IMG/VR virus record: IMGVR_UViG_3300045988_164982
Direction: 5' to 3' (one strand)
DNA length: 64,000 nucleotides
Source: a virus
This document shows, in pieces, positions 5,753 to 59,242 of this stretch (positions are counted from its first letter, which is position 1; each line of letters begins with the position of its first letter). The position numbers were made by a program, and so were the translations under genes. Below the pieces are notes generated by a model. It was not told where the DNA came from. It saw only the letters and a program-made list of their open reading frames with translations, and made no database searches.

Positions 5753-8700
5753 ATGGGCACAAAAATAACAAAAAATCTATCAATCCCTATAGTAGATTCA
5801 CAAGACCATGTTGCCAAGGAGTCTATCAACGATGCCTTGCTTGTCATTGATAAAAATGCATTGCATGTGAACCACGCTCTAAACAAGTCCCATTGGGACT
5901 ATTGGAAAGCAAATACTCAATATGCATTGCATGACATATTCAGAGCACCAGGTATTCCATCGTGGGGCTTCTTTGAGGTCATTCAAGCTGGAACTAGCAA
6001 TACCGATGCAGAAAACTACCCTGTCGCATACGGAGAGGGCGATAAAGTAACCAATGGTACTTGTGAGTTAATTCTCCGCAGACTTAACACTACAGATACT
6101 CTTGATTTCTACAATAATACTTTGATTACATCAGATTCCGTGGTAGCGCGTAAGGATGTGCCAAAGTCAACAAGCGTAGTCGAATTGCATGGGGGTGGCA
6201 AAACAACATACCCTATCACATCAGGAAATTCTGTAAGAATCTATGCCAGCAAATTCGGAGGCATTACGGAGCTTCTGTGTGGGTATTACGATGGTGGAAC
6301 CAAAGGACAGGCTCGCCTTTATTATCGTAATATGAGTGGAAGCGGTGCTGATTGGTCAGATTGGGATAGAATTGCTTTTACCGGTGATGCTGCTACTATT
6401 TCTGCATGGGCAAGTGGCACTTCTTATAATGCCAATGATGTTGTCAGACTCAACAATAAGCTGTGGGTTTGTAAAACAGCCAACAACGACAAATCATTTA
6501 CTAAGGCCAAGTGGGTGCAGATTGATGGTTATGATGCCAATGCTCCTGATTGGGAAACAAAACACACCTATTCCAAGAATGAAGTGGTTGTCAGCGAGGG
6601 TAAGCTCTACAGAGCTACAGTCAACCATACATCTACAATTGACCTAAAAACTGATATTGCGAACTGGGAATTAATCAGCGGGGCAGATCCATTTATTCCA
6701 GACTGGGAAACTAAACATGATTATTTGAAAAATGAAATAGTTGTCAGTGAGAGAAAATTGTACAGGGCAAAGGCAAGCCATACTTCTACAACTGACTTAA
6801 AGACTGACATTGCCAATTGGGAGTATGTAGGGCACGACCCTTACATTCCTGATTGGGAAGCCAGCCATAGCTATCTAAAGGACGAAACTGTTGTTTATAA
6901 AAAGACCATTTACAGAGCACTTAGCAAGCATAAATCTTCTGCAGCATTTGCAAGCGATGTTACTAAATGGGAGAAATTAGGCGGTGCTGGGGGCGTATCT
7001 CAGTGGACAACAAAGGAAAGCTATGATGTAGGCCAACTGGTTACTAATGACGGTATTCTGTATAGAGCAACTGCAAGCCACACATCTGGCACTTCCTTTT
7101 CACAGGATGCAGCAAATTGGTCGGTTGTTACAGCTGACCTTAATCACTGGGCCAAAAGCACCTATTATCCAGCAGGTATCATTGTAGAAAGTGGCAACCA
7201 GCTTTATAAGTGCAAAACTGCTCATGTATCTACCACCTCTATCATTGCTGACAATGATAAATGGACGAGAGTTACCAAACTCCCTTACATAAATGATTGG
7301 GAAGCATCTCATGACTACCAAAAAGATGATGTTGTGATAAGCGGTGGCAAAATGTATCGTGCCACTGCCAACCATAAGTCAACGACATCAATTGACAAGG
7401 ATATTGCCAATTGGGAAATGCTTATCAAAGCACCTTATATTGAGGATTGGGAGGCTAAGCACGATTATCTAAAAAATGATATTGTCGTTTATAAAAAGAC
7501 CATTTACAGAGCTAAACAGGCACACACCGCTACTGCTTCATTCTTAGATGATTCTGCAAATTGGGATAAATTAGGTGGAACAGGCAGGATTACTGCATGG
7601 ACTTCCAAAGAAAGTTACCAAGTAGGCCAGCTTGTCACTAACAACGGACTTCTTTATAAAGCAGTGAAAGACCATACTGCAAGTGCAGATTTTACTGCGG
7701 ATATTGCCAATTGGGAACTTGTTACGGCTACTGTAAATGCGTGGAGAACGGAAGTATATTATCCAGCAGGAATTATTGTTGAAAACAACAAAATCCTGTA
7801 TAAGTGTGTAACTGCACATACTTCTACCACTTCTCTTAGCGCAGATATTGACAATTGGGAGAGCATAAAAGGCGGTGCTCCTTATATCCCAGATTGGGTG
7901 ACTAAGCACGCTTACAAGGAGAATGAGATAATAGTAAGCGACTCCAAGCTGTACAGGGTAAAGACTGCACACACTTCAACAACCAGCCTTAGCGATGACA
8001 TTGCTAACTGGGAATATGTAGGGCATGACCCAAATATTCCAGATTGGGAAATCAAACATGACTACAAGCAGAATGAAGTAGTTGTTGTTAATGGTGCTAT
8101 TGCTAGGGCACTGTCTGCCCATAAATCATCAAGCACACAGTTCAGTGATGATGTTGCCAACTGGGAGTTTGTCAGCAGTTCCAGCGGAATGGCAAAGTGG
8201 ACTGTAAAGACTTTGTACCAAAAAGGACAGCTTGTGTCAGCTTGGAACAATGCCTATTATGCAAAATCTACCCATGTATCAGGCAATGATTTCTTCACAG
8301 ATTATGCTAACTGGGAGTTCTTCTGTTCTCATATCAATGGCTGGGTAGGAGCTGGTTATAATTACGAGCCTGGTATGACAGTGACTATGGACGGCAAAAT
8401 ATATTCCTGCACACTGAAACATACTGCTACTTCTTCATGGGAGGACGACAAAACCGCTAATTGGAGGCTCATAGGAGAGGCAGCACTTCTTACTGATTGG
8501 GCAACCAAGACCAGTTATGAGGTTGGCAAAGTTGTCGTAAAAGATGGTTCTATATACAGAGCCAATACCAAACATACCAGCACAACATTTTCAGCAGATA
8601 CTGACAAGTGGGAACTGCTCTTTTCCAGCATTGATACATGGAAAAAAAGCACTTACTACAAAGTAGGTGCTGTAATTACCGTCAATGGGTTGATTTATCG

Positions 8701-10306
8701 TTGTAATACCGCCCACACATCTACTACCACCATTAAGGCAGATATGGCGAATTGGGACATCATAGGCGGTGGTAATCCATACGCACCAGACTGGGCAACA
8801 AAACAGGTATATAAGGCTAACGATATTGTCGTAAAAGACAGCAAGTTGTACCGTGCTAAATTAGACCATACTGCTGGCACAAGTTTTGCTGATGATAAAG
8901 ACAAGTGGGAACTTATCGGTCATGACAAAATTACCGATTGGGAACCAGAAAAAAAATATGCCGTGGCAGATTTGTGTGTGTACAAATACAAACTGTATCG
9001 CTGTAAGCTGGCACACACAAGCTCTAGTACCATGAGTGATACCGAGCTTTCCAAATATTGGGAGGAAGTCAGCAAATCACAAAGTATCCCACCTTGGCAG
9101 ACAAAAACCATATACAATGTCGGAGATATTGTATATGAAGATTTTTCTATATATAGATGTTATAAAGCACATACTAGCGGAACATTCATAGATGATTTGG
9201 TTAATAGTTGTTGGTATAAGCTAGACCGACGAAGTGTTATCACCACAGGTATACCAACATACTCGTTAGGCCAAGAATTGATTTACGATTCCTATACTGG
9301 ACTACGACTTTCAAGAGGATACTATAAAGCTCCCTCCACTGAAGCAGAGCATAGTTCACGCTATGACCCAGTATGCACCAGTTTGGTTGATTACGATTAT
9401 CGGAGCGGGTACATTCGTAATCATTTGTATGGAGAAACAGCTTATTGCGGAAACAAAAGGGTTTATAAATGCTCAAAAAGAGAGCCAATACCTCCAAATA
9501 CACCACATAGTATTGAATCATACAGAATAACCTACCTAGCTACTGAGCAAGTGTTTATGATGAATAAATATGACAATGATTTAAAAAGATACTATGGTGA
9601 GTTAGTAATCAAACTCCCGCAAGTTAGTGATGTGACAAAGGTATCTTTCGGTCGGTATTTTCATAAAGGCGGTGCAGTTGATAGTGCCGATATTAGTATT
9701 TATACTAGCATCGATGGAAAAAAATATAACCTTGTAAGCATTTTCCATTACCTAATGGATAATATCACTGCAAAATTTACAGCTATATGTTGCTCGTATA
9801 TAAAAATTCGGTTGTATGGTGTATATTATGCAGGAAGCTCACATAGTAGTAAGGACGGATGGAGTTTTTCATTTATAGATGTTCATGGATTATCCCCTTA
9901 TTGGACACAAATCAAAGATGAACGAATCTTAGACTATGATTCTAGTAAAACTTACGAGTCACAAGATGTTGCTGTGCTTAACCGAAAACTATATCGTTGT
10001 GCTCTTCCTGTAGACGATAGAACAGGCATGAGTTACGATTATATGACAAAAAATCCGCAGTGGGAGTCACTTATTGCAGACATTGACCATTGGACAGCTG
10101 GTACTCTTTACGCAAAAGGTAGTTCCGTCATTTATAATCATGCACTTTTTGAATGTTTGGAGTTACATACAGCGTCTTCCGACTTCAAAACTGACTTGGA
10201 AGATAAATCTCCTAAATGGGTACAGATAAGCGGTGTTGGCACAGGGGATATTGCTACAGAGGACGAAGTGTTAGCAGCTATGACTGCGGTAATTACGGAG
10301 GATTGA
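5753..10306 (+). CDS. tail fiber / receptor-binding protein with about 24 tandem CBM5/12-like (chitin-binding-type) repeats
   Basis: 1517 aa; repeated ~45-aa unit DWETKHxYxKNExVVxxxKLYRAxxxHTSTxxxxxDIANWE (W..Y..V..G.LY.A...H.S......W pattern) from about aa 200-1100; short N-terminal fiber-anchor-like region; distinct ~400-aa C-terminal domain. Confidence 0.6.
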   Translation: MGTKITKNLSIPIVDSQDHVAKESINDALLVIDKNALHVNHALNKSHWDYWKANTQYALHDIFRAPGIPSWGFFEVIQAGTSNTDAENYPVAYGEGDKVTNGTCELILRRLNTTDTLDFYNNTLITSDSVVARKDVPKSTSVVELHGGGKTTYPITSGNSVRIYASKFGGITELLCGYYDGGTKGQARLYYRNMSGSGADWSDWDRIAFTGDAATISAWASGTSYNANDVVRLNNKLWVCKTANNDKSFTKAKWVQIDGYDANAPDWETKHTYSKNEVVVSEGKLYRATVNHTSTIDLKTDIANWELISGADPFIPDWETKHDYLKNEIVVSERKLYRAKASHTSTTDLKTDIANWEYVGHDPYIPDWEASHSYLKDETVVYKKTIYRALSKHKSSAAFASDVTKWEKLGGAGGVSQWTTKESYDVGQLVTNDGILYRATASHTSGTSFSQDAANWSVVTADLNHWAKSTYYPAGIIVESGNQLYKCKTAHVSTTSIIADNDKWTRVTKLPYINDWEASHDYQKDDVVISGGKMYRATANHKSTTSIDKDIANWEMLIKAPYIEDWEAKHDYLKNDIVVYKKTIYRAKQAHTATASFLDDSANWDKLGGTGRITAWTSKESYQVGQLVTNNGLLYKAVKDHTASADFTADIANWELVTATVNAWRTEVYYPAGIIVENNKILYKCVTAHTSTTSLSADIDNWESIKGGAPYIPDWVTKHAYKENEIIVSDSKLYRVKTAHTSTTSLSDDIANWEYVGHDPNIPDWEIKHDYKQNEVVVVNGAIARALSAHKSSSTQFSDDVANWEFVSSSSGMAKWTVKTLYQKGQLVSAWNNAYYAKSTHVSGNDFFTDYANWEFFCSHINGWVGAGYNYEPGMTVTMDGKIYSCTLKHTATSSWEDDKTANWRLIGEAALLTDWATKTSYEVGKVVVKDGSIYRANTKHTSTTFSADTDKWELLFSSIDTWKKSTYYKVGAVITVNGLIYRCNTAHTSTTTIKADMANWDIIGGGNPYAPDWATKQVYKANDIVVKDSKLYRAKLDHTAGTSFADDKDKWELIGHDKITDWEPEKKYAVADLCVYKYKLYRCKLAHTSSSTMSDTELSKYWEEVSKSQSIPPWQTKTIYNVGDIVYEDFSIYRCYKAHTSGTFIDDLVNSCWYKLDRRSVITTGIPTYSLGQELIYDSYTGLRLSRGYYKAPSTEAEHSSRYDPVCTSLVDYDYRSGYIRNHLYGETAYCGNKRVYKCSKREPIPPNTPHSIESYRITYLATEQVFMMNKYDNDLKRYYGELVIKLPQVSDVTKVSFGRYFHKGGAVDSADISIYTSIDGKKYNLVSIFHYLMDNITAKFTAICCSYIKIRLYGVYYAGSSHSSKDGWSFSFIDVHGLSPYWTQIKDERILDYDSSKTYESQDVAVLNRKLYRCALPVDDRTGMSYDYMTKNPQWESLIADIDHWTAGTLYAKGSSVIYNHALFECLELHTASSDFKTDLEDKSPKWVQISGVGTGDIATEDEVLAAMTAVITED

Positions 10307-10310
10307 TAGA

Positions 10311-12308
10311 ATGGGCTTAAAAAATGGCAATAAACTTGTAACTGTAGGCGGTCTAAGAAAGGTTTACGACAGTCTTATGAAGTCGTATGGCAGTATTTTA
10401 TTTGCTGACCTGCCTATGCCATCTAAAATGACAGTAGGTAATGTCTACAACATTAAGGATAAGTTTACTACCACGGATTATTTTGTGGAGGGCGAGGGCA
10501 AGGATTGTGCGGCCGGTACAAATGTTGGAATCATCGAAGTAAAAGAAACGAATACTGAAACGGGAGAAATAATCATAAGCTACAAATACGACTTGTTTGG
10601 TGGGCCTATGAGTATGGATTCCAGTGGCTTTGTTTCACAGGGACAGTTCACAAAAGCCATTGCTGAAATATCTAATTATGTTAGGGACATAGAGTTTCAG
10701 CCTAACAATACCAACACTGTTGTCGTTACGAAAGGCAATGGCAGTTCTTCTACTTACACGCTTAATGTTGGAAAAAATGCAGATGTCATAAAAGATATAA
10801 CTATTGATACTACTTTGTCTACGGATTTAGGTCATGTAAAACATAGGCGAATAACCCGTTCTGACAACAATTCAAAAGTTCACCTGATGTGGGAGGACCC
10901 TGACGATTCGACCAATGATGCCTGGGGAGAAACAGCTGTTGTTAAGAAGAAAGGTTCATACCCTACCAACATAGAGGACGGAACTTTGGTGTTGATATGT
11001 GCCGTTCGTAATAAGTTTAAATCCACGGCATATGTCGATGAACAGGAAAGCTCCGAGCAATGGTACTATAGAGCGTTTCCTATTGCTACCAGCGGTGCGG
11101 TATCAAACAGCAATCTTAACAGATTCGATTACTGGCATTATGCTGTTTGCATAGATGAAAAAAATCCTATTGAAGCAGATTCTGTTACCTATCCACCTGG
11201 GTACGATAATTCCGATTATAAGCCACTTAGAGTCATAATGAATGTCAATGCCCAGATGGATAATAACAAATGTGACTGGGGCAGTTGGAAAAACGCACCA
11301 TTTATGCCTCGTCCATGTATGCTGAAATTTGACGGAAAGGTTGATTATTATCTTAATCCAGACGATTACACTCTGAAAGAAGATGGCAGTCCTTCCGATG
11401 TTTCTAACACATCGTATGAGGGAAATGCAATGATGGAGTTCTCTCCTGTGTTCATCAAGGTTCAGAGGGTAGCTTCCATGCTATTCATCCACTTCTGTTC
11501 GGAAAAATATGATGATGATTATGAGTGCTGGTCATGCAAAAAGGAAGATGGCACTTATGCTGACCACTACTATATGGCCATCTACGAAGCAAGTCTTATA
11601 AACGGAAAGTTCCGTTCTTTGTCTACAGGAAATGTCGCAACAACCAACATAAGCGGTGGACTAACTACCTGCATGAATTATGCAAGACAATGTGGTGAGG
11701 GTTGGAACATCGACCTGTGGAGCGATTGGGATTTACTTAGATGTCTCGGAATCCTCGTAACTAAAAGACTAAATTCACAAAAGGCCGTAGGTGCTGGTGG
11801 AACTAGCTATCATGTAGTACCAACAGGGGCAGGCAATAAAAAGGGAATGTTTTGGGGGACACTCGATTACCAAAACACATATGCAACAAAATTTTTCGGC
11901 ATAGAAAATCCGTGGGGTGATATTTATAGATACTGTGCTGGTGTCATTATGAACTCTGATTATGCCACTATTTTGATAAAGCATACATATTCTGTAGTAG
12001 ATGGTTCTACCATTAATGGTTATAACGATAGTGGTACAGGGTACATAAACACAGGATTGAAAATACCAACATCTAATGGGTATATGACAAAAATGCAGGG
12101 CAATTCACAGTGCATTACTGCACCTATGAGCATTGGTGGTTCAGATACCACACATCTCAGCGACTATATGTACAGAGGAAATACAGGTTTGCTTATAAAC
12201 GGCCCCGGTGGTTACTCGGGCTGCGGCCTGTTCTGTTGGGACTCGTATTGCTCTCCGTCGTCCTCGGCCGTGGACTGTGGCGCCGCCTTGTCCTTTAAAA
12301 ATTTCTGA
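10311..12308 (+). CDS. tail fiber protein, DGR target gene with C-terminal variable region
   Basis: 665-aa ORF; the last ~30 codons (GYSGCGLFCWDSYCSPSSSAVDCGAAL) are the VR copy of the downstream TR. Confidence 0.7.
   Translation: MGLKNGNKLVTVGGLRKVYDSLMKSYGSILFADLPMPSKMTVGNVYNIKDKFTTTDYFVEGEGKDCAAGTNVGIIEVKETNTETGEIIISYKYDLFGGPMSMDSSGFVSQGQFTKAIAEISNYVRDIEFQPNNTNTVVVTKGNGSSSTYTLNVGKNADVIKDITIDTTLSTDLGHVKHRRITRSDNNSKVHLMWEDPDDSTNDAWGETAVVKKKGSYPTNIEDGTLVLICAVRNKFKSTAYVDEQESSEQWYYRAFPIATSGAVSNSNLNRFDYWHYAVCIDEKNPIEADSVTYPPGYDNSDYKPLRVIMNVNAQMDNNKCDWGSWKNAPFMPRPCMLKFDGKVDYYLNPDDYTLKEDGSPSDVSNTSYEGNAMMEFSPVFIKVQRVASMLFIHFCSEKYDDDYECWSCKKEDGTYADHYYMAIYEASLINGKFRSLSTGNVATTNISGGLTTCMNYARQCGEGWNIDLWSDWDLLRCLGILVTKRLNSQKAVGAGGTSYHVVPTGAGNKKGMFWGTLDYQNTYATKFFGIENPWGDIYRYCAGVIMNSDYATILIKHTYSVVDGSTINGYNDSGTGYINTGLKIPTSNGYMTKMQGNSQCITAPMSIGGSDTTHLSDYMYRGNTGLLINGPGGYSGCGLFCWDSYCSPSSSAVDCGAALSFKNF
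12206..12293 (+). repeat. DGR variable region (VR)
   Basis: 84-nt gapless alignment to the TR at +204 bp; all 17 mismatches fall at TR adenines. Confidence 0.85.
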
Positions 12309-12342
12309 TGGGAGGGGTGCAGGGGAGGATTCCCCTCCCCGC
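12274..12342 (+). promoter_or_regulatory. GC-rich IMH-like VR 3' end (GGCGCCGCCTTG) plus downstream GC hairpin GGGGAGG-ATTCC-CCTCCCC
   Basis: the GC-rich VR end matches the TR except at A positions; a perfect 7-bp GC stem lies at 12322-12340, analogous to the Bordetella DGR IMH and hairpin. Confidence 0.5.
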
Positions 12343-12409
12343 TCGCTTTCCCAGGGAATAGTAACATTTTAGAAATTAAATATATGGGTATATACAGACG
12401 AGGCGGCTA

Positions 12410-12497
12410 CGGTGGTAACTCGAACTACGGCCTGTTCTATTGGAACTCGAATAACTCTCCGTCGAACTCGAACGTGAACTATGGCGCCGCCTTGTAA
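12410..12497 (+). repeat. DGR template repeat (TR)
   Basis: non-coding copy of the VR with 21 adenines, AAC/AAT (Asn) codons in the VR frame, ending in TAA. Confidence 0.85.
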
Positions 12498-12628
12498 CTT
12501 GAACACAATATAAATAATGTCGGTATATATCCACACTCCATACGGAGAGAAAATTAGGCATACAGAAAGCGGATTAGTAAGAGTAAAATCATAATATCCG
12601 TAGACCTTTGTTCAAAGGATTTTAACAT

Positions 12629-13714
12629 ATGAAAACTATAAATAATCTATTCAATGAAATAATAAGTGAATCTAATTTGAGGATGGCTCTACACAACGCA
12701 GCCAAGGGAAAAAGAGATAAACGCAGTGTGAAAAGTGCTCTTTTTAACGAAGATGAAGTTGTGACACAGCTTCATTATGAACTAAAAAACAATTTATGGA
12801 GGCCAAAGCGAATACACAACATAAAAATAATCAACGATGGTGTGCAGAAAAAGAAACGTGAAATAGTTTGCCCAGATTTTATTAAAGACCAGGTTGTTCA
12901 TCATGCCATAATGCAGGTATGTAAACCTTACTTTATCAATAGATTCTACAAACATTCTTATGCAAGTGTGCCCAAATACGGAGGGCTTGAAAATATGGTA
13001 AAATATATTAGGCACGCAATGAATGACAAGAAAAACACGAAATATTTCGTCAAACTAGATATAAAGCAATTTTTCAATTCCATAAAGCCATCAACAGTCT
13101 TTCATGTGCTTAGAAGAATTATCAGGGATAAGAAAACTTTAGCCCTTTTCGCACGTATTCTGCGTGGCAATGTTATTATCCATCCAGAACTAGGTGTTAT
13201 AAAGCGAGGGTGTCCGATAGGGCTATATACATCACAATGGTTTGCCAACATATTATTGACACCGCTTGACAATCTTATTAAGTCATTTGGAAAGAAAATA
13301 GCGCCGTATTATGTAAGGTATAATGACGATATACTCATATTTTCACCTAATAAGCGAAAACTAAAAAAGGTTGTAGATGGGGTTGTAAACCACCTTGAAC
13401 TAATAGGACTTTCTTTGAAACACAAAGCACAAATTCACATGACATCAAAGAATAAAATAACATATGTTGGTTCTTTGATAACATATTATAAGATTACAAT
13501 GAAGCCTAAAACATTCGTAAAGACAAGGCGATGTTTGAATCACATAAGGAAGAAAATGAACAATCATCAGAAAATAACTTCTTATGATGCAAAAAGAGCA
13601 TTTGCCTATATATCACGCTGTAGAATTTACGATATGCATGATTTTATAGCTGATTTGCAATTGCCTTTAGATAATTTCAAAAAGACTATCAGTTATGCAG
13701 ACAAAAGGAAGTGA
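12629..13714 (+). CDS. DGR reverse transcriptase
   Basis: 361 aa; RT motifs LDIKQFF (motif A), IGLYTSQ (DGR-diagnostic IGxxxSQ in place of QGxxxSP), YVRYNDDILIF (YxDD); size and position downstream of the TR. Confidence 0.85.
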   Translation: MKTINNLFNEIISESNLRMALHNAAKGKRDKRSVKSALFNEDEVVTQLHYELKNNLWRPKRIHNIKIINDGVQKKKREIVCPDFIKDQVVHHAIMQVCKPYFINRFYKHSYASVPKYGGLENMVKYIRHAMNDKKNTKYFVKLDIKQFFNSIKPSTVFHVLRRIIRDKKTLALFARILRGNVIIHPELGVIKRGCPIGLYTSQWFANILLTPLDNLIKSFGKKIAPYYVRYNDDILIFSPNKRKLKKVVDGVVNHLELIGLSLKHKAQIHMTSKNKITYVGSLITYYKITMKPKTFVKTRRCLNHIRKKMNNHQKITSYDAKRAFAYISRCRIYDMHDFIADLQLPLDNFKKTISYADKRK

Positions 13715-45689: not shown

Positions 45690-47145
45690 TGATACGCTTT
45701 CGCTGTCAACTACCTACCACCTATAGAGGTGGAGGCTTGTAAGTCAAAAATCACTTAGGTACTAACGATATTATCTCCCTAATTTTGCCTACATCATCGG
45801 ATGGTTGACAACACCCGTCTAGCCTAAAAGTATACTTCTAAGCTGTTAGTTTTGGTTTTTTCTCACCTGAAACATATCTCACACCTAATTGCTGAATATT
45901 CATAGCACCAACTCTATCATCATTACTGCAATACCCACATTTACATCTAAAAATGTGAGATTTGTGGTTACGACTCTTTTTATCAATACATCCACACTTA
46001 GGACATCTCTGAGACGTATATTGTGCAGGTACTTTTAATACAGCACTATGATTTAAATTAGCCTTATAGGTTAAGAATTGCTCTAACTGGTAAAAAGCCC
46101 ATGAACGCTTCTCACAACGACTTTCAGTAGAGCCTTTTAAATTATCCTCATCAAAGGTAATCCCTGTTAAATCTTCAAGTACAAAAAGTGTATTTTTACC
46201 ATACTTCTTTATGAGTGTCTTAGATAGACAGTGATTAACATCTGTCATCCAACGGTTCTCTCGTCCTGAAATACGTTTTAATACTCTTTTAGCCGATTTT
46301 GTACCTTTAGACTGTAACTCTGCTCTTACTTTAGCAAATCTATTACGTTTAGTCCTAGCCTTATTTCCTGAAAAGAATGTAGTCTTTCCTTGCTCATCAT
46401 AACACACTGCATGAAATCTAATGCCTCTGTCAATACCAACTACATGAGCAATCTGTTCTGTATTTACAGCCTCAATTAACTTAGTAGCTGAAATGTGTAA
46501 GTACCAACTACCATCATGTTCTACTAACTTAGCACTGCCAAGTTTCCAATCAGAAGAGAAATATTTATCAAAATTATCACTACATATAGGTGTAGCAAAT
46601 ATTCTGCCCTCTAAAGTATTAATAGATAAATTCCCGTTGGCTAACTTAGACCAATCACGATTACGAACAAGGTCGACTTGCGGATGTGCAAAATTTATAG
46701 GCTTCTCGAGCCATTCAAGATTCCTAGAAACATGATACCTCTTCTTAGTATTCTTATCTTGGAATCTATACGGATTTTGTTTCAACTGTGTTTTTACAGT
46801 CTTATATCTTGCAATTGTAGAACGAATTGCAGATTGTGCCATCATGGATTTTAATCCAAATTTTACACGAATCTCACTATATATCCCTTTTTGTAATTTT
46901 AGCTGACTTAACTGAAACCCGTGTGTAAAGATATATTCGGAAATATAATTACAGGCTTGTCTATATTGCTCCATAGTATTAGTAACTTTAGAAACATCTT
47001 CAATACGATGTAAGTCTAACTTTACTTTTATTGTAATACCTTGTGTTATACTAGACAATCATATCACCTCCTTTGTTTAATTTATTTAATATATCTAGCA
47101 ATTCCTCCCCCACTTCTATAAGTGGGGGGAGGAATTGCTAAAGTG
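45690..47145 (-). mobile_element. IS200/IS605-family element carrying only tnpB (IS1341-like), with subterminal hairpins
   Basis: TnpB ORF; left-end perfect hairpin AGCAATTCCTCCCCCACTT-ctata-AAGTGGGGGGAGGAATTGCT (47096-47140); right-end hairpin CCACCT-atag-AGGTGG (45716-45731). Confidence 0.65.
45838..47058 (-). CDS. tnpB: TnpB (OrfB) RNA-guided-endonuclease-family transposase accessory protein
   Basis: 406 aa; C-terminal zinc-ribbon CPKCGCIDKKSRNHKSHIFRCKCGYCSNDDRVGAMN; RuvC-like region. Confidence 0.75.
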   Translation of the reverse strand: MSSITQGITIKVKLDLHRIEDVSKVTNTMEQYRQACNYISEYIFTHGFQLSQLKLQKGIYSEIRVKFGLKSMMAQSAIRSTIARYKTVKTQLKQNPYRFQDKNTKKRYHVSRNLEWLEKPINFAHPQVDLVRNRDWSKLANGNLSINTLEGRIFATPICSDNFDKYFSSDWKLGSAKLVEHDGSWYLHISATKLIEAVNTEQIAHVVGIDRGIRFHAVCYDEQGKTTFFSGNKARTKRNRFAKVRAELQSKGTKSAKRVLKRISGRENRWMTDVNHCLSKTLIKKYGKNTLFVLEDLTGITFDEDNLKGSTESRCEKRSWAFYQLEQFLTYKANLNHSAVLKVPAQYTSQRCPKCGCIDKKSRNHKSHIFRCKCGYCSNDDRVGAMNIQQLGVRYVSGEKKPKLTA

Positions 47146-51131: not shown

Positions 51132-51149
51132 TAATTTCAGGTAAAAGAA

Positions 51150-51182
51150 AAGCCCCACCATTATGGCAGGGCTTTTTGATTT
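51150..51182. terminator. bidirectional terminator between convergent blocks
   Basis: GCCCCACCAT...ATGGCAGGGC imperfect stem flanked by an A-run and a T-run. Confidence 0.4.
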
Positions 51183-52355: not shown

Positions 52356-52775
52356 TTACATCACCTCCAAGCGTGCCTGATTCTTTAACATGAGGCCAGT
52401 CAGAAGCCTGTTCAGCTCGCAAACATCATCAACATCAATAGAGGTCGTGTTTTCGCCATCTCTACCAGCAAGGAAGATGTCACCAAACAAAAGCCCAGCA
52501 TAGTCAAGCTCTCCAGTAGCCAATTTTAAAGGGTTCAAGCAGATATTTGGCTGTGGATTAGGTATAAGCAAAGCCTCATCATCAACAAAAATGTCATATT
52601 TTGCCAGTGGTGTTTTCAGAAGAATATCAGGCAGATAGCGGGTAGCTGGTACAAGGTTAAACAAACGACCGCCTACAAGATTTTGCATAGCCTTAATGTC
52701 GTGCTCTATTCGGATGACTTCAGGCGTAAAACTATCAGCCTTTAAATGTAATACAGTAAGTTTTCCTTTTTTCAT
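52356..52775 (-). CDS. hypothetical protein (cluster member)
   Basis: ORF, co-oriented with the neighbouring genes. Confidence 0.4.
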   Translation of the reverse strand: MKKGKLTVLHLKADSFTPEVIRIEHDIKAMQNLVGGRLFNLVPATRYLPDILLKTPLAKYDIFVDDEALLIPNPQPNICLNPLKLATGELDYAGLLFGDIFLAGRDGENTTSIDVDDVCELNRLLTGLMLKNQARLEVM

Positions 52776-52870
52776 AATGGTACACTCCTTTTACAGTAAA
52801 GAATATTGATGTATGGTACATCTCATAGGGCATTAATACTGTGTACTAGTGCCCTATAGGACAAACCAGA

Positions 52871-53836
52871 CTAACATACAGCAGATTCAGCCACTAAGGC
52901 TGAGGGGGAGGAGGTACGCCAAGCCACATTGCCAGACAGATTTTCTAATAGGAATTTACGACATGTTTCAAATTCTTTCCCCTTTAGCTTCAGTTGGTTA
53001 ATAAAACAGTGCATGAGATATGCCTGATTGTCGGTTTGTGCTGGAGTAGGGTCGGCACGCTTTTTTGACTTTGCTAATTCCATGATAGCAAGTGCAAACT
53101 GAATTGCGGTCTTGACTTTACCCGCATGGAGGGTGGAATTGAAAAGCCTAAACTCCACTGTGCCGTGCATTCCAAGCGAATGAAAATTCAATGCACGATA
53201 ACGGCTGTCATGATAATGCACGCTCTGCTGATGGCGTACCTCATCAGGCAAGCACGAATAAAAACTGGCCAAAAATTCATCTAGGGTAAAGTCACCAGTC
53301 AGTGCATTTATTGCCCTAGAATATCTCCCGCTCATTGGCTGACAATATGTGATGTTGCGGTGCTCATCATCAACCTGAAAGGCATTGAAAAACATTGCTT
53401 CATTCTTGTGCCAGATGTTGGCTAAGACTCGCAGGTGCTTTGGCGTAAAGTCATCAGCACCTATGTGTACATGTAAGCCACAAGACCGGTTTACTTTAGC
53501 TCCGTATCTTTTCAGATTACGAACGACCTCCTGTAGAATCTCGATGTCTTGACTGCCAGACAGTATCGGCGTGATTAATTCGCATTGAGATGTGGCAACA
53601 TCATCACCCTCATGTGTTGGAGAACATGTCCTTATGCTAGAGTCACGGGCAATATACCAATTACGGCCTTTGCTGTCCTGATACACATATTTGTCATAGA
53701 CACCACCACAAAAGTCCGTTTTAGCGAAAATGTTTTTGGAAATTGTAGTTGCAACAATGGCAATAGCCGCTGGCCTTGATACTCCGCAAAATTCCAGCTC
53801 TACACCAAAAGTGCGTGCCTCCATGTTTTCATTCAT
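52871..53836 (-). CDS. amidoligase / GCS2-like carboxylate-amine ligase
   Basis: N-terminal FGVELEF and SCGLHVHIG (GxHxHxG) motifs of the glutamine-synthetase-like amidoligase/YbdK superfamily. Confidence 0.55.
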   Translation of the reverse strand: MNENMEARTFGVELEFCGVSRPAAIAIVATTISKNIFAKTDFCGGVYDKYVYQDSKGRNWYIARDSSIRTCSPTHEGDDVATSQCELITPILSGSQDIEILQEVVRNLKRYGAKVNRSCGLHVHIGADDFTPKHLRVLANIWHKNEAMFFNAFQVDDEHRNITYCQPMSGRYSRAINALTGDFTLDEFLASFYSCLPDEVRHQQSVHYHDSRYRALNFHSLGMHGTVEFRLFNSTLHAGKVKTAIQFALAIMELAKSKKRADPTPAQTDNQAYLMHCFINQLKLKGKEFETCRKFLLENLSGNVAWRTSSPSALVAESAVC

Positions 53837-53940
53837 AGTACATACACTCCTTAGAAATACATTGATAATATTCAGTCCTAAAGACTTTACACTGCCCACC
53901 AGGCGAAAGCTGGCAAGCAGGTTAAAACCTTTAGAGTATG
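53837..53940 (-). promoter_or_regulatory. conserved structured 5' UTR element, copy 1 (upstream of the amidoligase)
   Basis: about 100 nt nearly identical to 55256-55350, including the RBS AAGGAGTGTATGTACTATG; internal hairpin with compensatory changes. Confidence 0.5.
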
Positions 53941-54010
53941 GATATATTAAGCTCATCAGCAGCCAAGCGGATGGCCTTGTCGAAAAATTCCTGAGAAATT
54001 GACTTTTCTA

Positions 54011-54184
54011 CAGTGCTGGCCATTTTGCCGTTGAAAAGTTCCCAGCAATCAGGGCCAATCTTGAATATGTTTTTTTATCAGTAGCGTCCAGCTGTTGCCC
54101 TAACCAAAAAATGTTGCCGTCAATGAGAAGTTTTGCAAGAATACCACCAAACTCGTCGTTATATTCACAATCCAGAACTGTCAT
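54011..54184 (-). CDS. small hypothetical protein (57 aa)
   Basis: AGGAGG RBS 6 nt upstream of the ATG. Confidence 0.35.
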
Positions 54185-54199
54185 AATAAAACCTCCTTT

Positions 54200-54706
54200 T
54201 TATCGCGGTAATCTAGAAGTGACACGTAAAATTTTATCTTTATATATTTTTGAAATTTCGATATGAATATCATTGACTAGGGTGTTGAGGTCTGATATTT
54301 TTTCATTCAGCAGGGCAATGGTGTCCTCGACGTGTTCAGCTTGTGCTGTTAGGTCTGATATTACCTTTTTGATATATTCGGCTCGTTTGTCTATCAATAC
54401 ATTGAGCTTTTCGGCATTGATACGCTTGCCGTCCAGAAAATCATCTAATTTACATATAACTAGATTGCGTGCATAATCATCACAAGCTCCGTCCTCGCGT
54501 TCTATTTTAATGCTTTTTTTATCATAGCTAGCGTGATAAACATAACAGCCAACTGACTCTAAGGCATTGTCAAAACGCTTGTTATAACACTTGCCATCAA
54601 ACTGCTGGGCAATAGCTTTTACGCCATCGACCAGGGCAAAGGTCTTTTCATACTGAGAGATACGTGCCTGTAATAAAATTTCTTCTTTTGTCATGACTTT
54701 AGCCAT
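54200..54706 (-). CDS. hypothetical protein
   Basis: 168-aa ORF. Confidence 0.4.
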   Translation of the reverse strand: MAKVMTKEEILLQARISQYEKTFALVDGVKAIAQQFDGKCYNKRFDNALESVGCYVYHASYDKKSIKIEREDGACDDYARNLVICKLDDFLDGKRINAEKLNVLIDKRAEYIKKVISDLTAQAEHVEDTIALLNEKISDLNTLVNDIHIEISKIYKDKILRVTSRLPR

Positions 54707-54781
54707 AATAAAAACCTCCTAAAAAGCTAACCACAAAAAATGCACTTGTGGTCATAAAGAATATATGGTATGATAATAGAG

Positions 54782-55255
54782 TCAAATTATACCTTTCCAA
54801 ATGAGCTTATATTCAGGTAAGGAACGGATAGAAGTTGACGACTTTAGCTCCGTATCTATGCCGATGATGATGTGGTCTAGTACGGGAATATTCAGGATTT
54901 TTCCTGCCTCTACCAATCGTCTAGTGGTATTAATATCATCCTCTGATGGAGTAGACACGCCACTGGGGTGGTTATGAGCTACGATGATGCTGGCCGCATT
55001 GTGCAGGATAGCAGGTGCAAACACCGACCTCGGCTCAACAACGGAGGCTGAGGAGCTACCCACGGAAATATCCTGAATAGCGATAACACCGCCCTTGATG
55101 TTCAAGCACATAACAGTGCAATGCTCGTATGGTTCATCTTTAAACCAGCTGGCCAGAATGGCGGTGGCATCATCAGCACCTGTGATGGTTTTAGTTTCGT
55201 AAAGATGACTGCCCTCACGGACAAGCTGAAGCTTGTAACTTGCAATTCTTTTCAT
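54782..55255 (-). CDS. RadC-like JAB/MPN-domain protein
   Basis: AHNHPSGVSTPSEDD ... PVLDHIIIG JAB signature. Confidence 0.7.
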   Translation of the reverse strand: MKRIASYKLQLVREGSHLYETKTITGADDATAILASWFKDEPYEHCTVMCLNIKGGVIAIQDISVGSSSASVVEPRSVFAPAILHNAASIIVAHNHPSGVSTPSEDDINTTRRLVEAGKILNIPVLDHIIIGIDTELKSSTSIRSLPEYKLIWKGII

Positions 55256-55352
55256 AGTAAATACACTCCTTGTATGTAAAAGATTGATATTCAGCCTAAA
55301 GGCTTTACACTGCCCACCAGATACAAATCTAATAGGCAGGTTAAAACTTTTA
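55256..55352 (-). promoter_or_regulatory. conserved structured 5' UTR element, copy 2 (upstream of RadC-like)
   Basis: see copy 1. Confidence 0.5.
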
Positions 55353-55360
55353 GGGTGGTA

Positions 55361-55894
55361 TCAGTACAACTCAATGTAACCACCAGCAGCAGGGATATAA
55401 TGCCCCTCAATTTCAAGGTCGCGACCATAGGCCTCATAATCAAAGTACCGAAGTAAAAGGTCTATATCTTTGGAACGGTCACAACCGGGGCAGTTAAAAT
55501 CTGCAATTACTTGACGGGCTACATCTCCCATGTCGTCGCAATTGTCATAAAAGGTGTAGTTGTCGTCTTCTAGGATGGTCAAACCCTCCTCAATATTGCA
55601 GGAATACTCATAAAGAATAGCCTCAATAATCTCGTCGTCCTCGTCAATGTCTTCCAGCCGTTCTGCGACATCATTCACATGGTCATAAGAGGCGTACTCG
55701 CCAAAATTAACTGGGCTTTCCCAATCAGGGAAAAAGTACTCCTCGTGTTCGTCATCGCATCCAATGTCAGACAAAATCTCATTGAACTCATCAGAGGAAA
55801 TAGGGAAGTCAATCCAACGGCCTTTATCAATGCCCTCGTTCCATAATCCCAGACAAGCGATATAACCACGGATAGCAATAGTATTGTTTTTCAT
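55361..55894 (-). CDS. ardA: antirestriction protein ArdA-like
   Basis: MKNNTIAIRGYIACLGLWNEGIDKGRWIDFPISSDEFNEIL N-terminus; highly acidic remainder (DNA mimic). Confidence 0.55.
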   Translation of the reverse strand: MKNNTIAIRGYIACLGLWNEGIDKGRWIDFPISSDEFNEILSDIGCDDEHEEYFFPDWESPVNFGEYASYDHVNDVAERLEDIDEDDEIIEAILYEYSCNIEEGLTILEDDNYTFYDNCDDMGDVARQVIADFNCPGCDRSKDIDLLLRYFDYEAYGRDLEIEGHYIPAAGGYIELY

Positions 55895-55931
55895 AATAAT
55901 ACACTCCTTTTTGAGATACATAATCAGCATA

Positions 55932-56138
55932 TCAGCAGTTTTTCCACTTATTAGAAAACCACTCCCTATAAGCTACAATGTCGTCACCTTTATAGATGTA
56001 CAAGGGTGTAAGCCGACCAGCACACAAGCGACTTGCAAAGCGTTTGGCACTAGTCAAGGTCTTGCAATCAATATAGGAAGTGTTGGACGAGTAATTGTCT
56101 AATTCTTCTATGATACGGAATACCATAATAAAAACCAC
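55932..56138 (-). CDS. small hypothetical protein
   Basis: ORF. Confidence 0.3.
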   Translation of the reverse strand: MVFIMVFRIIEELDNYSSNTSYIDCKTLTSAKRFASRLCAGRLTPLYIYKGDDIVAYREWFSNKWKNC

Positions 56139-56728: not shown

Positions 56729-56750
56729 TAACAAAATTGTTATATTAATC
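56729..56750. promoter_or_regulatory. perfect palindrome ATATAACAA-AA-TTGTTATAT inside a CCCGCCT...AGGCGGG long-range stem
   Basis: 9-bp perfect inverted repeat within a 435-bp ORF-free stretch. Confidence 0.45.
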
Positions 56751-56904
56751 CGTTAGGCGGGTAAAGAAGTCCACCCACAACCAAATTACCAGCAGGTAAA
56801 AGGCTAGATAGTATAATTTTTTCATTCTAAAACCACCTTTCAAATGTTTATGTGCAAAGTTTACAAAATTTCATAGCTAACCATTCCAGATTTTGTGAAA
56901 GGTT

Positions 56905-56976
56905 AACAATCATGGTAAAAACCACTTATGATACCTATTACATTTTTGTAGGTAATAGGCATTTAAGAAGTTTTTA
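56905..56976 (-). promoter_or_regulatory. conserved intergenic RNA element, copy A (AAAACCrCTTATGATACC-hairpin-GCATTTAAGArGTTTT)
   Basis: hairpin CCTATTAC...GTAATAGG here versus CACCGCC...GGCGGTG in copy B. Confidence 0.45.
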
Positions 56977-57240
56977 ATCATGGGGCATGGTAGGCAGATG
57001 ACTGATGACTGGGGTAAAATACCCCTTGTTATAGTAGGCATCTACTTCTGCCATGCTATTGAACTCTATAGTCCAATCTTTTACAACTTGGCAAGAAAAT
57101 CCGACATCACTCAGTAAACACCTATAGTCAACTACATACTTGTTTTTAATATGATACAAGTTTGCATGTATGCTGAGGGTCTTGCCGTTTTTCGTTTTTA
57201 CAACGTTATGAGTAGCTATACAATCCTCTAGTTTACGCAT
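56974..57240 (-). CDS. hypothetical protein
   Basis: ORF. Confidence 0.4.
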   Translation of the reverse strand: MRKLEDCIATHNVVKTKNGKTLSIHANLYHIKNKYVVDYRCLLSDVGFSCQVVKDWTIEFNSMAEVDAYYNKGYFTPVISHLPTMPHD

Positions 57241-57254
57241 TTCAAAAACCGCCT

Positions 57255-57348
57255 TTCCAGGATTTACAAATTTTCATTCACGGAATAAAACCGCTTATGA
57301 TACCCACCGCCCAGCAAGGCGGTGAGCATTTAAGAGGTTTTATTTATC
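57255..57348 (-). promoter_or_regulatory. conserved intergenic RNA element, copy B
   Basis: see copy A. Confidence 0.45.
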
Positions 57349-57349
57349 A

Positions 57350-57853
57350 TCAATTCCAATAGATTGCCCAAGCTCTTTCCCTTGCCAATTCCTCAAGCAG
57401 GTCGTGCTCTTTGTTGGCTACTAGGGCATTGATAATTTTTACATCTAACTCGGACGGTACGTTATTGATATAGCATATATACCAGCCCTTACCGCAACAA
57501 ATATCATAAAGGTGATTTAGGAGGGCGTGCTCACCATTGCCCCACATATCGTATATGGTTTGGTCAAAGTTATCGCCGTACATATCCATGAGGTCGTCAG
57601 CACACTCGATGTGATCTCTCCATAAGATATAGTAATTAGAGTTACTGCTGATTATGCTTTTTTCAGCAGACAAGGTCAGCACACCAGCAAGCTGGTCGGC
57701 TGGATAGTAGTTAATAGCGTTTGACCATGTATGACAAATATGTACATCACACTCCCGCTCGATTACCATCTCAACGGCAACTTGGCTGGCTTTTACGGCC
57801 TCAACCAGCTTTGCCTCAAAATCCCAGTATTCGCTATATGTATACTTCTCCAT
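57350..57853 (-). CDS. acidic hypothetical protein
   Basis: 167-aa ORF. Confidence 0.45.
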   Translation of the reverse strand: MEKYTYSEYWDFEAKLVEAVKASQVAVEMVIERECDVHICHTWSNAINYYPADQLAGVLTLSAEKSIISSNSNYYILWRDHIECADDLMDMYGDNFDQTIYDMWGNGEHALLNHLYDICCGKGWYICYINNVPSELDVKIINALVANKEHDLLEELARERAWAIYWN

Positions 57854-58582
57854 AATGAAACACTCCTTTGTATTGCTTATTATTATTCTGACTAATAGCC
57901 ATTAGTCTGCCCTTTACCTATGCGGGTAATGAGCAGGTAAAGGCTACAAGGTCGGCAGGGAATACACCGCTCCGCCATGACATTATGGCAGTGTACTTTG
58001 CTGATAGTATGCCACATATCACACCGCCAGCTGTAGCAAGCTAGCTATGGCATACCGTTTCTGTCAGCGTGTCCGCTACATCATCATAGCGGGTGGGCGT
58101 ACTACACCTGTAGCACGACTTTGAGCTGTATGCGGTTTTCAAGGTACAACCGTTCCTTGCAGGTGGCTTACACCTGTGGGTAGACTACTCCCTGTCCTGC
58201 CTCCTATTTCAGGACGACTTTAATACATCTATTTGTTCGCTTTTGTTTGGCGGTTGCGACTCCGCCTGTACGGTACACGCCCCGCACGGTTGGCGGTCTA
58301 GGGGGTAGGCTTTCAACTTTGTTCCTGTTCCCCTTGACAATTATATTATAACTCTACACCTATATAATGTCAATACTTTTTATATATTTTTTGGCAGCCT
58401 GTGTGTATTTTTTATGTGGCGTTTTGTATTTTACCAGAGGTCAAGCGGATGTTTGCTCGGTACTGCCCTGGGAGCTACGCTAGGGAATTGCATGGTCTAG
58501 CTCTAAAATTTTTCCCAAATTTGAAATCCATTTGTGCAAGGTTAATCAACTGCGTTTTGTATAAAAATCTACAAAAAATCAT

Positions 58583-58651: not shown

Positions 58652-59242
58652 ATGGCGGTAGTAAAGGAAACAAGCATACAAATTAGGATGAGCGAAGATG
58701 AAAAAGCCATATTAAAGGCATTAGCTGAACAAAAGGGGCTTACATTATCAGACTTTGTACGCAGCGTATGTAAGCAGACAGTTATTAATAGCATGAGTGG
58801 CAGTTGCAACCTACAGGATAGGGAAGAAAGCGGCCAAATCACAAATAAGAATGATGTGAACCTAGGTGAGAAAAATCTAACACTTTTAGGAGGGGACGAT
58901 TGGGTAGCATATTCTTTTAATACCACGAAGAATACGAGTGAGATTCTGAACGCTGTTGCTAAAGCTAACAACACAACAGCCAATAAAATGATAAGAACAC
59001 TGCTATTAGCATGGCTAAGGGGAAAGACGAACAATGAGAATAGTGGAGTAGGAAGTATTTCTATATCCCCTAGAAAAAGAGGAGAAAAAAACTCGGTCAC
59101 TATCGGTCTTACCTTGACTAAGAATGACAGAGAAGCAATTTTAGGCTATTTAGCACAGTCAGGAGATAAACTTACTGGACTGCTAGATACCCTGATAGAC
59201 ACCTATGTGAAACCACAGCACAATGAACTGAAAGGGGAGTAG
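58652..59242 (+). CDS. DNA-binding protein with two RHH/CopG-like modules
   Basis: IRMSEDEKAILKALAEQKGLTLSDFVR and a second LTKNDREAILGYLAQSGDKLTGLL module. Confidence 0.45.
   Translation: MAVVKETSIQIRMSEDEKAILKALAEQKGLTLSDFVRSVCKQTVINSMSGSCNLQDREESGQITNKNDVNLGEKNLTLLGGDDWVAYSFNTTKNTSEILNAVAKANNTTANKMIRTLLLAWLRGKTNNENSGVGSISISPRKRGEKNSVTIGLTLTKNDREAILGYLAQSGDKLTGLLDTLIDTYVKPQHNELKGE

Follow-up and report, generated by a model that had tools for sequence, protein, structure and literature searches.

What is repeated in front of two unrelated genes of one phage, and on which molecule does it act? In a 64,000-nt stretch of viral DNA (IMG/VR record IMGVR_UViG_3300045988_164982; the whole stretch is referred to as the window), the genes for an amidoligase and for a RadC-JAB protein are each preceded by a leader of nearly the same sequence. 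Both leaders, hereafter copies A and B, lie on the minus strand and are 83% identical over approximately 105 nt: copy A (55357..55253) ends at the ATG of the RadC-JAB gene, and copy B (53938..53834) at the ATG of the amidoligase gene, whose true start is at 53836. A 26-nt core, CTGGTGGGCAGTGTAAAGNCTTTAGG, has exactly two matches in the window versus none in 100 shuffles, and both the positions and the near-identity reported for these leaders by a first-pass annotation, made from the letters alone, were borne out. The comparisons presented here argue strongly that the repeated unit carries a hairpin selected as a structure of the sense-strand transcript, and that the gene-sized differences between the operons of related contigs mostly have their junctions at these repeats. 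The units probably lie between the cistrons of one operon, for which a consensus promoter is found upstream.

Copy A is comprised of a hairpin of 27 bp, including 4 G·U pairs (55292..55357, minus strand), which begins 3-6 nt past the ArdA stop codon (55361-55363), and of a leader (55253..55291) with a 20-nt A/U-rich spacer, the Shine-Dalgarno (SD) sequence AAGGAGTGTAT and the RadC-JAB ATG. Copy B has the same layout, with a hairpin of 25 bp, including 6 G·U pairs (53876..53936, minus strand), whose 5' arm contains the stop codon (53931-53933) of the preceding small open reading frame (ORF), and with a leader (53834..53875) of a 23-nt spacer, again AAGGAGTGTAT, and the amidoligase ATG. An ORF running from an ATG at 53956 through copy B was rejected as a gene: the gene callers applied to the relatives use the SD-preceded ATG, and copy A has no such frame. 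By folding, A and B each form a single imperfect hairpin of 61-66 nt and 25-27 bp, in which a lower stem is followed by a 1x1 mismatch, a middle stem, a 2x2 internal loop, an upper stem of 11-13 bp and a loop of 4-7 nt, with an RNA minimum free energy of about -30 (A) and about -27 (B) kcal/mol. The flanks AAGGUUUUAAC and GUGUAAAGNCUUUAGG, previously listed as separate blocks, base-pair together, and the variable central stem is enclosed by pairing of CCUAAAAGUUUUAAC on the 5' side with GUGUAAAGCCUUUAGG on the 3' side. The earlier statement that the central hairpin keeps its pairing therefore holds, but the hairpin is far longer than had been described and includes the flanks. The SD is not sequestered by the conserved helix.

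The analysis was extended with ten related gut-metagenome contigs of 82-97% identity, of which two came from IMG/VR, two from pattern scans of metagenomes and six from a match to the exact RadC protein, and with two covariance models, the first built only from A/B-type sequences and the second from classes A to D. Where the first-pass annotation had counted only two copies, a further copy C and the weaker copies E, F and G were found in the same operon, all on the minus strand. Copy C (57851..57953) is a diverged paralog that scored 36.8 bits (E 2e-5) with the A/B-only model and 83.8 bits with the A-D model; after its hairpin (57953-57890) come 21 nt of spacer, AAGGAGTGT and the ATG at which a 167-aa orphan gene (57350-57853) starts. 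Class D precedes ArdA in eight of the ten related contigs according to the covariance model. Before ArdA (55361-55894) the window holds a remnant of copy D (55892..55938, minus strand) with the SD/ATG part kept; the D hairpin segment of 62-65 nt is cleanly deleted in the window and in contig L124, which is probably the window's own contig, while ArdA and its SD are retained in both. Copy E (57346..57238; E 6e-4 with the A-D model; hairpin 57284..57344, 26 bp) has a leader of a second type, GAAAGGCGGTTTTT..ATG at 57257-57238, and precedes an 88-aa gene (56974-57240). Copy F (56980..56872; E 3e-3 with the A-D model; hairpin 56916..56976) starts with its hairpin on the stop codon of this 88-aa gene. 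Copies E and F are clear mutual paralogs, having in common the lower stem, the middle stem CUUA/UAAG and an A/CA internal loop, and their upper stems are of different sequence and both fully paired. Copy G (52873..52773; E 0.06 with the A-D model; hairpin 52871-52811, 23 bp) is weakly similar to A-D and leads, via a 20-nt spacer and AAGGAGTGTAC, to the ATG of the DUF3846 gene (52356-52775). Beyond these gene-strand copies in the operon, the A-D model gave no convincing match elsewhere in the window.

The hairpins of the six copies A, B, C, E, F and G share one geometry: 23-27 bp, or about two helical turns, with the internal loop 11-14 bp below the apical loop and the same mismatch and internal-loop arrangement kept throughout. 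Each starts 0-6 nt past the preceding stop codon, except that no gene was called upstream of C, and behind it come an A/U-rich spacer of 20-26 nt, a strong SD and an ATG. All 27 distinct sequences from the window and the ten related contigs folded independently to this one architecture.

Does the pairing covary? The first-pass annotation had seen compensatory change between A and B; the upper-stem differences between these two copies turned out to be one-sided transitions that keep pairing through G·U, instead of double changes. It is only with the paralogs C and D and the relatives included that true double changes emerge. In a model-based alignment of 25 distinct A-D sequences, 95.7% of the cells of the whole helix are paired, versus 38-51% in slid controls, and 12/23 pairs show double changes. 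Because model-based alignments lean towards structure, the count was repeated on a structure-blind MAFFT alignment, where 96.5% of the upper-stem cells are paired (slid controls 33-55%) and double changes occur at 6/11 pairs. Plain MAFFT alignment of all classes shifts the lower stems of A/B by one column versus those of C/D/E, and since the lower stems are out of register, MAFFT was used for the upper stem only and the model-based alignment for the whole helix. Among the orthologs of B, one pair can be followed from A-U through G·U to G-C. Variable columns make up 24/138 of the stem, 22/60 of the loops and 40/141 of the spacer. The earlier proposal of a functional RNA element, conserved in structure under varying sequence, is thereby supported by covariation over four to five paralog classes and ten contigs: the covariance model and covariation check that it had called for were run, and the additional copies C, D and those of the relatives keep their pairing with double changes. 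The covariation comes from five or six paralog lineages in one phage group and appears solid, not broad, its base being limited because the family was found in one phage lineage only.

The selected molecule is most probably the sense-strand RNA, as indicated by the G·U pattern and by the RNA versus DNA energies. In the A/B group 12 stem pairs vary, with G·U occurring at 11 of them and C·A at two. For all six window hairpins, folding with RNA parameters gives the sense strand a greater stability than the antisense strand (-30.3 versus -24.5 kcal/mol for A; -26.6 versus -19.1 kcal/mol for B), while under DNA parameters both strands lie between -9 and -12 kcal/mol and the strand preference is inconsistent.

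The window represents a temperate tailed phage or prophage, as seen from its tail proteins and a phage integrase (28730-29779), and the accessory operon containing the cassettes spans about 58.4 to 51.1 kb on the minus strand. In gene order it encodes the 167-aa orphan, the 88-aa orphan, small ORFs and a 64-aa ORF; ArdA (55361-55894; PF07275) and then RadC-JAB (54782-55255; PF04002); a 168-aa orphan and an 84-aa gene; the amidoligase (52871-53836; PF12224) and the DUF3846 protein; and finally a GGACT-family gamma-glutamyl cyclotransferase, preceded by a 68-aa ORF. In the window an apparent frameshift splits what is a single 84-aa gene in the relatives into a 58-aa and an overlapping 30-aa ORF (53931-54184, minus strand), and the same 58-aa call was also obtained on contigs L124 and L126. 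Downstream of hairpin F lies a 26-aa, strongly hydrophobic ORF (MKKLYYLAFYLLVIWLWVDFFTRLTD; 56745-56825, minus strand) with its own SD, GAAAGGTGG, which is conserved in contig L122.

A consensus promoter, TTGACA-17-TATAAT, matching at 12/12 positions, is located at 58345..58373 on the minus strand, approximately 390 nt upstream of copy C; six relatives retain the two hexamers, three of them with a different spacer. A strong terminator-like hairpin with a T-run (51148..51176, minus strand) is found at the operon end, and a weaker terminator-like site (54728-54754, minus strand) past RadC, between A and B. A consensus scan detected no sigma-70-like site of at least 9/12 on the gene strand inside A, B or C, and the sole -10-like hexamer, TATTAT in copy B, is TGTTAT in contigs L120 and L123 and hence not conserved, so a promoter inside the cassette was rejected. 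Likewise rejected was an intrinsic terminator for A-D, which have no U-tract: the stem of A and B is followed by CUGAAUAU, and neither copy was flagged by the terminator scan. The elements are therefore probably not the 5' untranslated regions (UTRs) of separate transcripts, as the earlier reading had it, but intercistronic parts of one message. Its alternative of a portable promoter/UTR cassette stands as far as portability is concerned, the cassette preceding at least four unrelated genes and lying at gain and loss junctions, and falls with respect to the promoter, for which no sigma-70-like match was obtained. The operon promoter itself is overlapped by an inverted repeat, TTGACAttata..tataaTTGTCAA (58330-58373, minus strand), and adjoined by a divergent gene for a 196-aa Arc/RHH-like repressor homolog (58652-59242, plus strand), which together look like a candidate repressor-operator switch for the accessory operon.

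Comparison of the relatives identified four gene-sized events and one hairpin deletion whose junctions fall in or at cassettes or leaders. The 88-aa gene was lost in contigs L026 and L027 by a crossover between E and F just 3' of the hairpin, which joined the E hairpin to the sequence downstream of F; it was lost in L122 by a crossover near the SD of an E-type leader, and it is also missing from L123. In L125 the 168-aa gene was lost between two AGGAGGTTTT(T)ATTATG leaders. Conversely, a 90-aa orphan gene flanked by 15-nt direct repeats, TAGGAGTGTTTAAAA, was inserted in L026 (5344-5660) and L027 at the exact 5' foot of hairpin B, and in L118 the upper stem of copy A is the one that L026 has in its copy B. 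A 1124-nt deletion in L026 and L027, which removed the 3' two-thirds of the amidoligase gene and most of the DUF3846 gene, is not associated with a cassette. Because the cassettes share about 100 nt of mutual homology, they are also the sites at which recombination adds, removes and swaps genes, and because the crossover points vary, ordinary homologous or microhomology recombination is indicated, not site-specific exchange.

How widely is the cassette distributed? Rfam 15 gave no match over the whole window at gathering thresholds, and at E<=10 the region 53700-55500 gave four weak matches, none of which overlaps the elements on the minus strand. Searches of GenBank phages by blastn and megablast returned no relatives. 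In IMG/VR, a scan with three exact patterns found the element on two related contigs only, the other matches being due to chance, and a protein search with the amidoligase found nothing. The core pattern GGTRGGYAGTGTAAAGNCTTTA had no match in the 185,579 species genomes of GTDB. A metagenome scan, using a pattern that demanded three bases between CTTTA and TGA and could thus catch A-type copies only, yielded two more relatives. The covariance models were also run on 78 further viral loci that encode RadC and on 80 ArdA loci of Clostridia genomes (best identity 39%) and found no copy, which means that the element has no general link to RadC or ArdA. Among species-representative genomes, the closest ArdA proteins reach 39% identity at most, and nearly all of them belong to gut Clostridia. 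Exact copies of the RadC protein were present on human gut metagenome contigs, one of them 325 kb long, from which we conclude that the element lives as a prophage.

Taken together, the cassettes most likely constitute a paralogous family within an accessory operon, one of anti-restriction and orphan genes, in a temperate phage whose hosts are gut Clostridia. We regard the structural claim as strong, and infer the mechanism. We give an about even chance to the reading, drawn from sequence and folding, that these intercistronic hairpin-plus-leader cassettes act in mRNA processing, stability or translational insulation. The hairpin would act on the polycistronic mRNA as a processing or stability element, most likely through cleavage by a host RNase III-type enzyme in or near the conserved internal loop, which would leave a protective 3' hairpin on the upstream message. 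Equally compatible would be a cleavage-independent, two-way barrier to exonucleases combined with a translational insulator. By either route, expression of a gene would depend on a standardised, unstructured ribosome-binding region of its own and not on its neighbours. RNase III needs approximately 22 bp, and at internal loops it cuts a single strand, leaving a stabilising 3' hairpin (PMC3867540). Each of the six window hairpins is an irregular helix of this kind with an internal loop where cleavage would be expected, and their geometry, with about two helical turns and the apex 11-14 bp above the internal loop, suits an RNase III substrate. That the hairpins are RNase III-type sites specifically is nevertheless a tentative prediction, which we hold to be the less probable outcome.

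Several points weigh against a role in processing, stability or insulation. RNase III cleavage is not predictable from sequence. Among the loci searched, the family was seen in one phage lineage only, and its covariation reflects a handful of paralog splits, not many independent lineages. The D hairpin is missing from the window and L124 with ArdA and SD kept, and the hairpin is therefore dispensable for at least one gene. Copies E and F, whose terminal U-runs belong to the lower stem, might act in termination or attenuation. Homologous recombination is expected at any repeat, so that the shuffling role may be a by-product. Finally, the most conserved sequence surrounds the internal loop, UUUA..UGC / GCA..UAA(A/U)G, and could equally mark a specific protein-binding site.

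The last point leads to the alternative that the hairpin is the binding site of a specific RNA-binding protein, encoded by phage or host, such as a translational repressor, or serves as an antitermination signal of the nut/put kind by which the accessory genes would be coordinated. The flanks of the internal loop are nearly invariant across the paralogs, with invariant U-A pairs at columns 14-55, 15-54 and 20-49 and nearly invariant G-C (21-48) and C-G (22-47) pairs, while the outer and apical stems drift with compensation, and any of the several orphan proteins of the operon that have no family match could be the partner. We consider this rather unlikely: nut and put sites occur once near each promoter and here four to seven copies are found per operon, the conserved helix does not sequester the SD, the D hairpin can be lost, and no RNA-binding domain was found in the neighbouring genes, searches of PHROGs and Pfam with the neighbouring orphan proteins giving no hint of an RNA-binding partner. 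A transcriptional cassette similar to the promoter early stem-loops (PeSLs) of T4-type phages, with the hairpin as terminator or attenuator and a spacer that holds a promoter, possibly not sigma-70-like, is unlikely. The layout of stop codon, stem-loop, A/T-rich stretch, SD and ATG matches that of the PeSLs (PMC2839356), as do the orphan genes and the indel junctions; copy B has its TATTAT 23 nt upstream of the SD, and E and F carry U-runs. Set against these likenesses, the consensus scan detected no promoter in A, B or C on the gene strand, no -35 element lies at 16-18 nt, the TATTAT of B reads TGTTAT in two relatives, the D spacers differ freely, A-D are not intrinsic terminators as they have no U-tract past the stem, and the G·U-biased covariation indicates selection on the transcribed hairpin.

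The sequence could also act as DNA, namely as an attC-like recombination site in single-stranded DNA (ssDNA), as a cruciform or protein operator, or as a mobile inverted-repeat element. Small genes of the same orientation, mostly promoterless, are indeed separated by imperfect inverted repeats of approximately 60 nt, the structure of these repeats is better conserved than their sequence, and gene cassettes come and go there. The ssDNA, attC and miniature inverted-repeat transposable element (MITE) readings were nonetheless rejected, and a DNA-level function as a whole is very improbable. The hairpins are weak and strand-symmetric under DNA parameters, and the preference of G·T over A·C, 11 to 2, has no rationale in a DNA duplex. 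The crossover points vary by event (3' of the hairpin, near the SD, between hairpin-less leaders), as in homologous recombination and not as with a site-specific cut. No integron integrase IntI is encoded, the sole tyrosine recombinase being the phage integrase approximately 25 kb away, and the R''/R' cores RYYYAAC/GTTRRRY of integron attC sites are absent. All copies have a single orientation and none is dispersed elsewhere, which speaks against a MITE. A functionless, recent intergenic duplication, carried along by gene shuffling and kept for its good ribosome-binding site, would explain why the family is confined to one phage lineage and why one hairpin was deleted with its gene kept; it is quite improbable given that the paralog stems have diverged to about 50% and are yet 96% paired with 12 double-changed pairs, that loops and spacers change faster than stems, and that six hairpins retain the mismatch and internal-loop geometry. 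A more speculative and likewise improbable proposal is that a new phage system has the hairpins as its dedicated recognition sites, and that they are not generic RNase III substrates. In one form of it, a phage RNA-binding or RNA-cutting protein, perhaps an orphan of the operon, would read the UUUA..UGC/GCA..UAAAG core and thereby time or balance the expression of anti-defence genes; in another, the structure would guide cassette exchange, making the region a phage-borne, integron-like island without an integron integrase.

With processing, stability or insulation of the message as the favoured function, the element would work most like the early RNase III signals of phages T7 and SP82 and evolve like PeSLs. 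It is a member of none of the known families, be it the T7/SP82 signals, the PeSLs or the start-associated sequences (SAS) and extended SAS (ESAS), but represents a lineage-specific cassette family. The T7 early regions were folded here, with the five RNase III signals at their published positions (the RefSeq record carries no annotation of them), and display the same succession of stop codon, hairpin, about 20 nt, SD and AUG, as well as a conserved hairpin base with a variable apex, the same distribution of conservation among paralogs. In T7 and SP82, as here, several paralogous irregular hairpins lie between the cistrons of a transcript, early or accessory, at whose start an anti-restriction gene region is found; T7 has five such signals in a precursor of about 7000 nt (PMC3867540), and the SP82 sites are cited in PMC4838370. 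The hairpins described here differ from these signals by their length of 23-27 bp versus approximately 15-20 bp, by small 1x1 and 2x2 loops versus one large internal loop, by a host belonging to the gut Clostridia, and by a cleavage that is predicted only. The T7 sites share CUCAAGG..CCUUUAUGAU, which is absent from the elements, and there is no sequence homology to T7.

Like PeSLs, which are found in orphan-gene regions and whose copies recombine to delete, insert and swap genes (PMC2839356), the element is a repeated cassette with stem-loop and SD that spans the interval between the upstream gene's stop codon and the downstream ATG, is located among orphan genes, and is where indel and replacement junctions fall when close relatives are compared. 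What defines PeSLs is a strong sigma-70-like promoter together with a G/C-rich stem-loop acting as terminator; inside the present cassette no promoter was detected, A-D have no U-tract, and the hairpin is twice as long and shows covariation of the RNA type. The SAS and ESAS of Cluster K mycobacteriophages resemble it in that a conserved asymmetric sequence, here AAGGAGTGTAT, is placed at the ribosome-binding site of a subset of genes, with imperfect inverted repeats of variable spacer located upstream in about half of the cases; single genes in single genomes have no such repeat, and the function has been linked to translation starts (PMC3203893). Covariation and gene-shuffling junctions form no part of the ESAS description in the available text of PMC3203893. 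The SAS further differ by their 13-bp consensus, GGGATAGGAGCCC, their 17-bp inverted repeats and a host of another phylum.

The 5' stem-loop stabilisers of Firmicutes, such as the aprE and ermC leaders, place a hairpin near a strong SD and protect the downstream message from 5'-to-3' decay; unlike the cassettes, they are single-copy and lie at the 5' end of primary transcripts. Frpo-type single-strand initiation (ssi) sites or single-strand promoters, in which folded ssDNA forms the -35 and -10 boxes, occur upstream of ardA in the leading regions of conjugative elements. A promoter of this type was rejected on the basis of the tailed temperate phage context (tail genes, diversity-generating retroelement (DGR), integrase), stems without hexamers at promoter spacing, and weak DNA folding. 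The radC RNA motif (RF01754) precedes, in addition to radC, other DNA-related genes of mobile elements. It is a candidate cis-regulatory RNA upstream of radC and is Proteobacterial (PMC2864571), and no match to it was obtained on the gene strand, either at the gathering score or at E<=10.

Accessory and anti-defence islands of gut phages contain many orphan genes whose expression and turnover are poorly understood. The present island offers a compact and well-supported case of a standardised unit of hairpin and ribosome-binding site placed before unrelated genes (ArdA, RadC-JAB, amidoligase and orphans), with natural variants in which the unit has been deleted, swapped or used as crossover point. 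If the cassettes are processing or stability signals, T7-style operon processing would extend to temperate phages of gut Clostridia, and the cassette could be used as an insulator part just as it stands; should they be recombination linkers, the concept of PeSLs would reach past the T4-type phages. The covariance model built here is absent from Rfam and could seed a new family.

Several other features of the window are located outside the accessory operon. A TnpB / IS605 OrfB-like gene (45838-47145, minus strand; PF07282, PF01385) is preceded by a near-perfect hairpin of about 40 nt (47145-47100), which has a weak covariance-model score and is unrelated to the cassette family. The window starts (1-75) with the 15-nt tandem repeat GACCCTGATAATCCA. 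A region of 5753-10306 encodes a 1517-aa tail-region protein with at least eight CBM_5_12 carbohydrate-binding repeats, and is followed by the DGR (10311-13714), which comprises a reverse transcriptase (12629-13714; PF00078), a variable repeat (12200-12291) at the 3' end of a 665-aa gene, and a template repeat (12404-12495); variable and template repeat share 82% identity and differ mostly where the template has adenines. Directly downstream of the gene for a 269-aa protein with an IS110-family Transposase_20 match (21704-22513; PF02371, E 8e-6), a gap of approximately 1.1 kb without a convincing ORF is filled by an array of about 16 units (22535-23122, plus strand) with a 36-nt period, each unit being composed of two 18-nt halves, GAyAGwAACA-N8-GAGyGArCCA-N8. 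This array may represent iterons or an origin; alternatively, it may be an RNA or protein-binding array.

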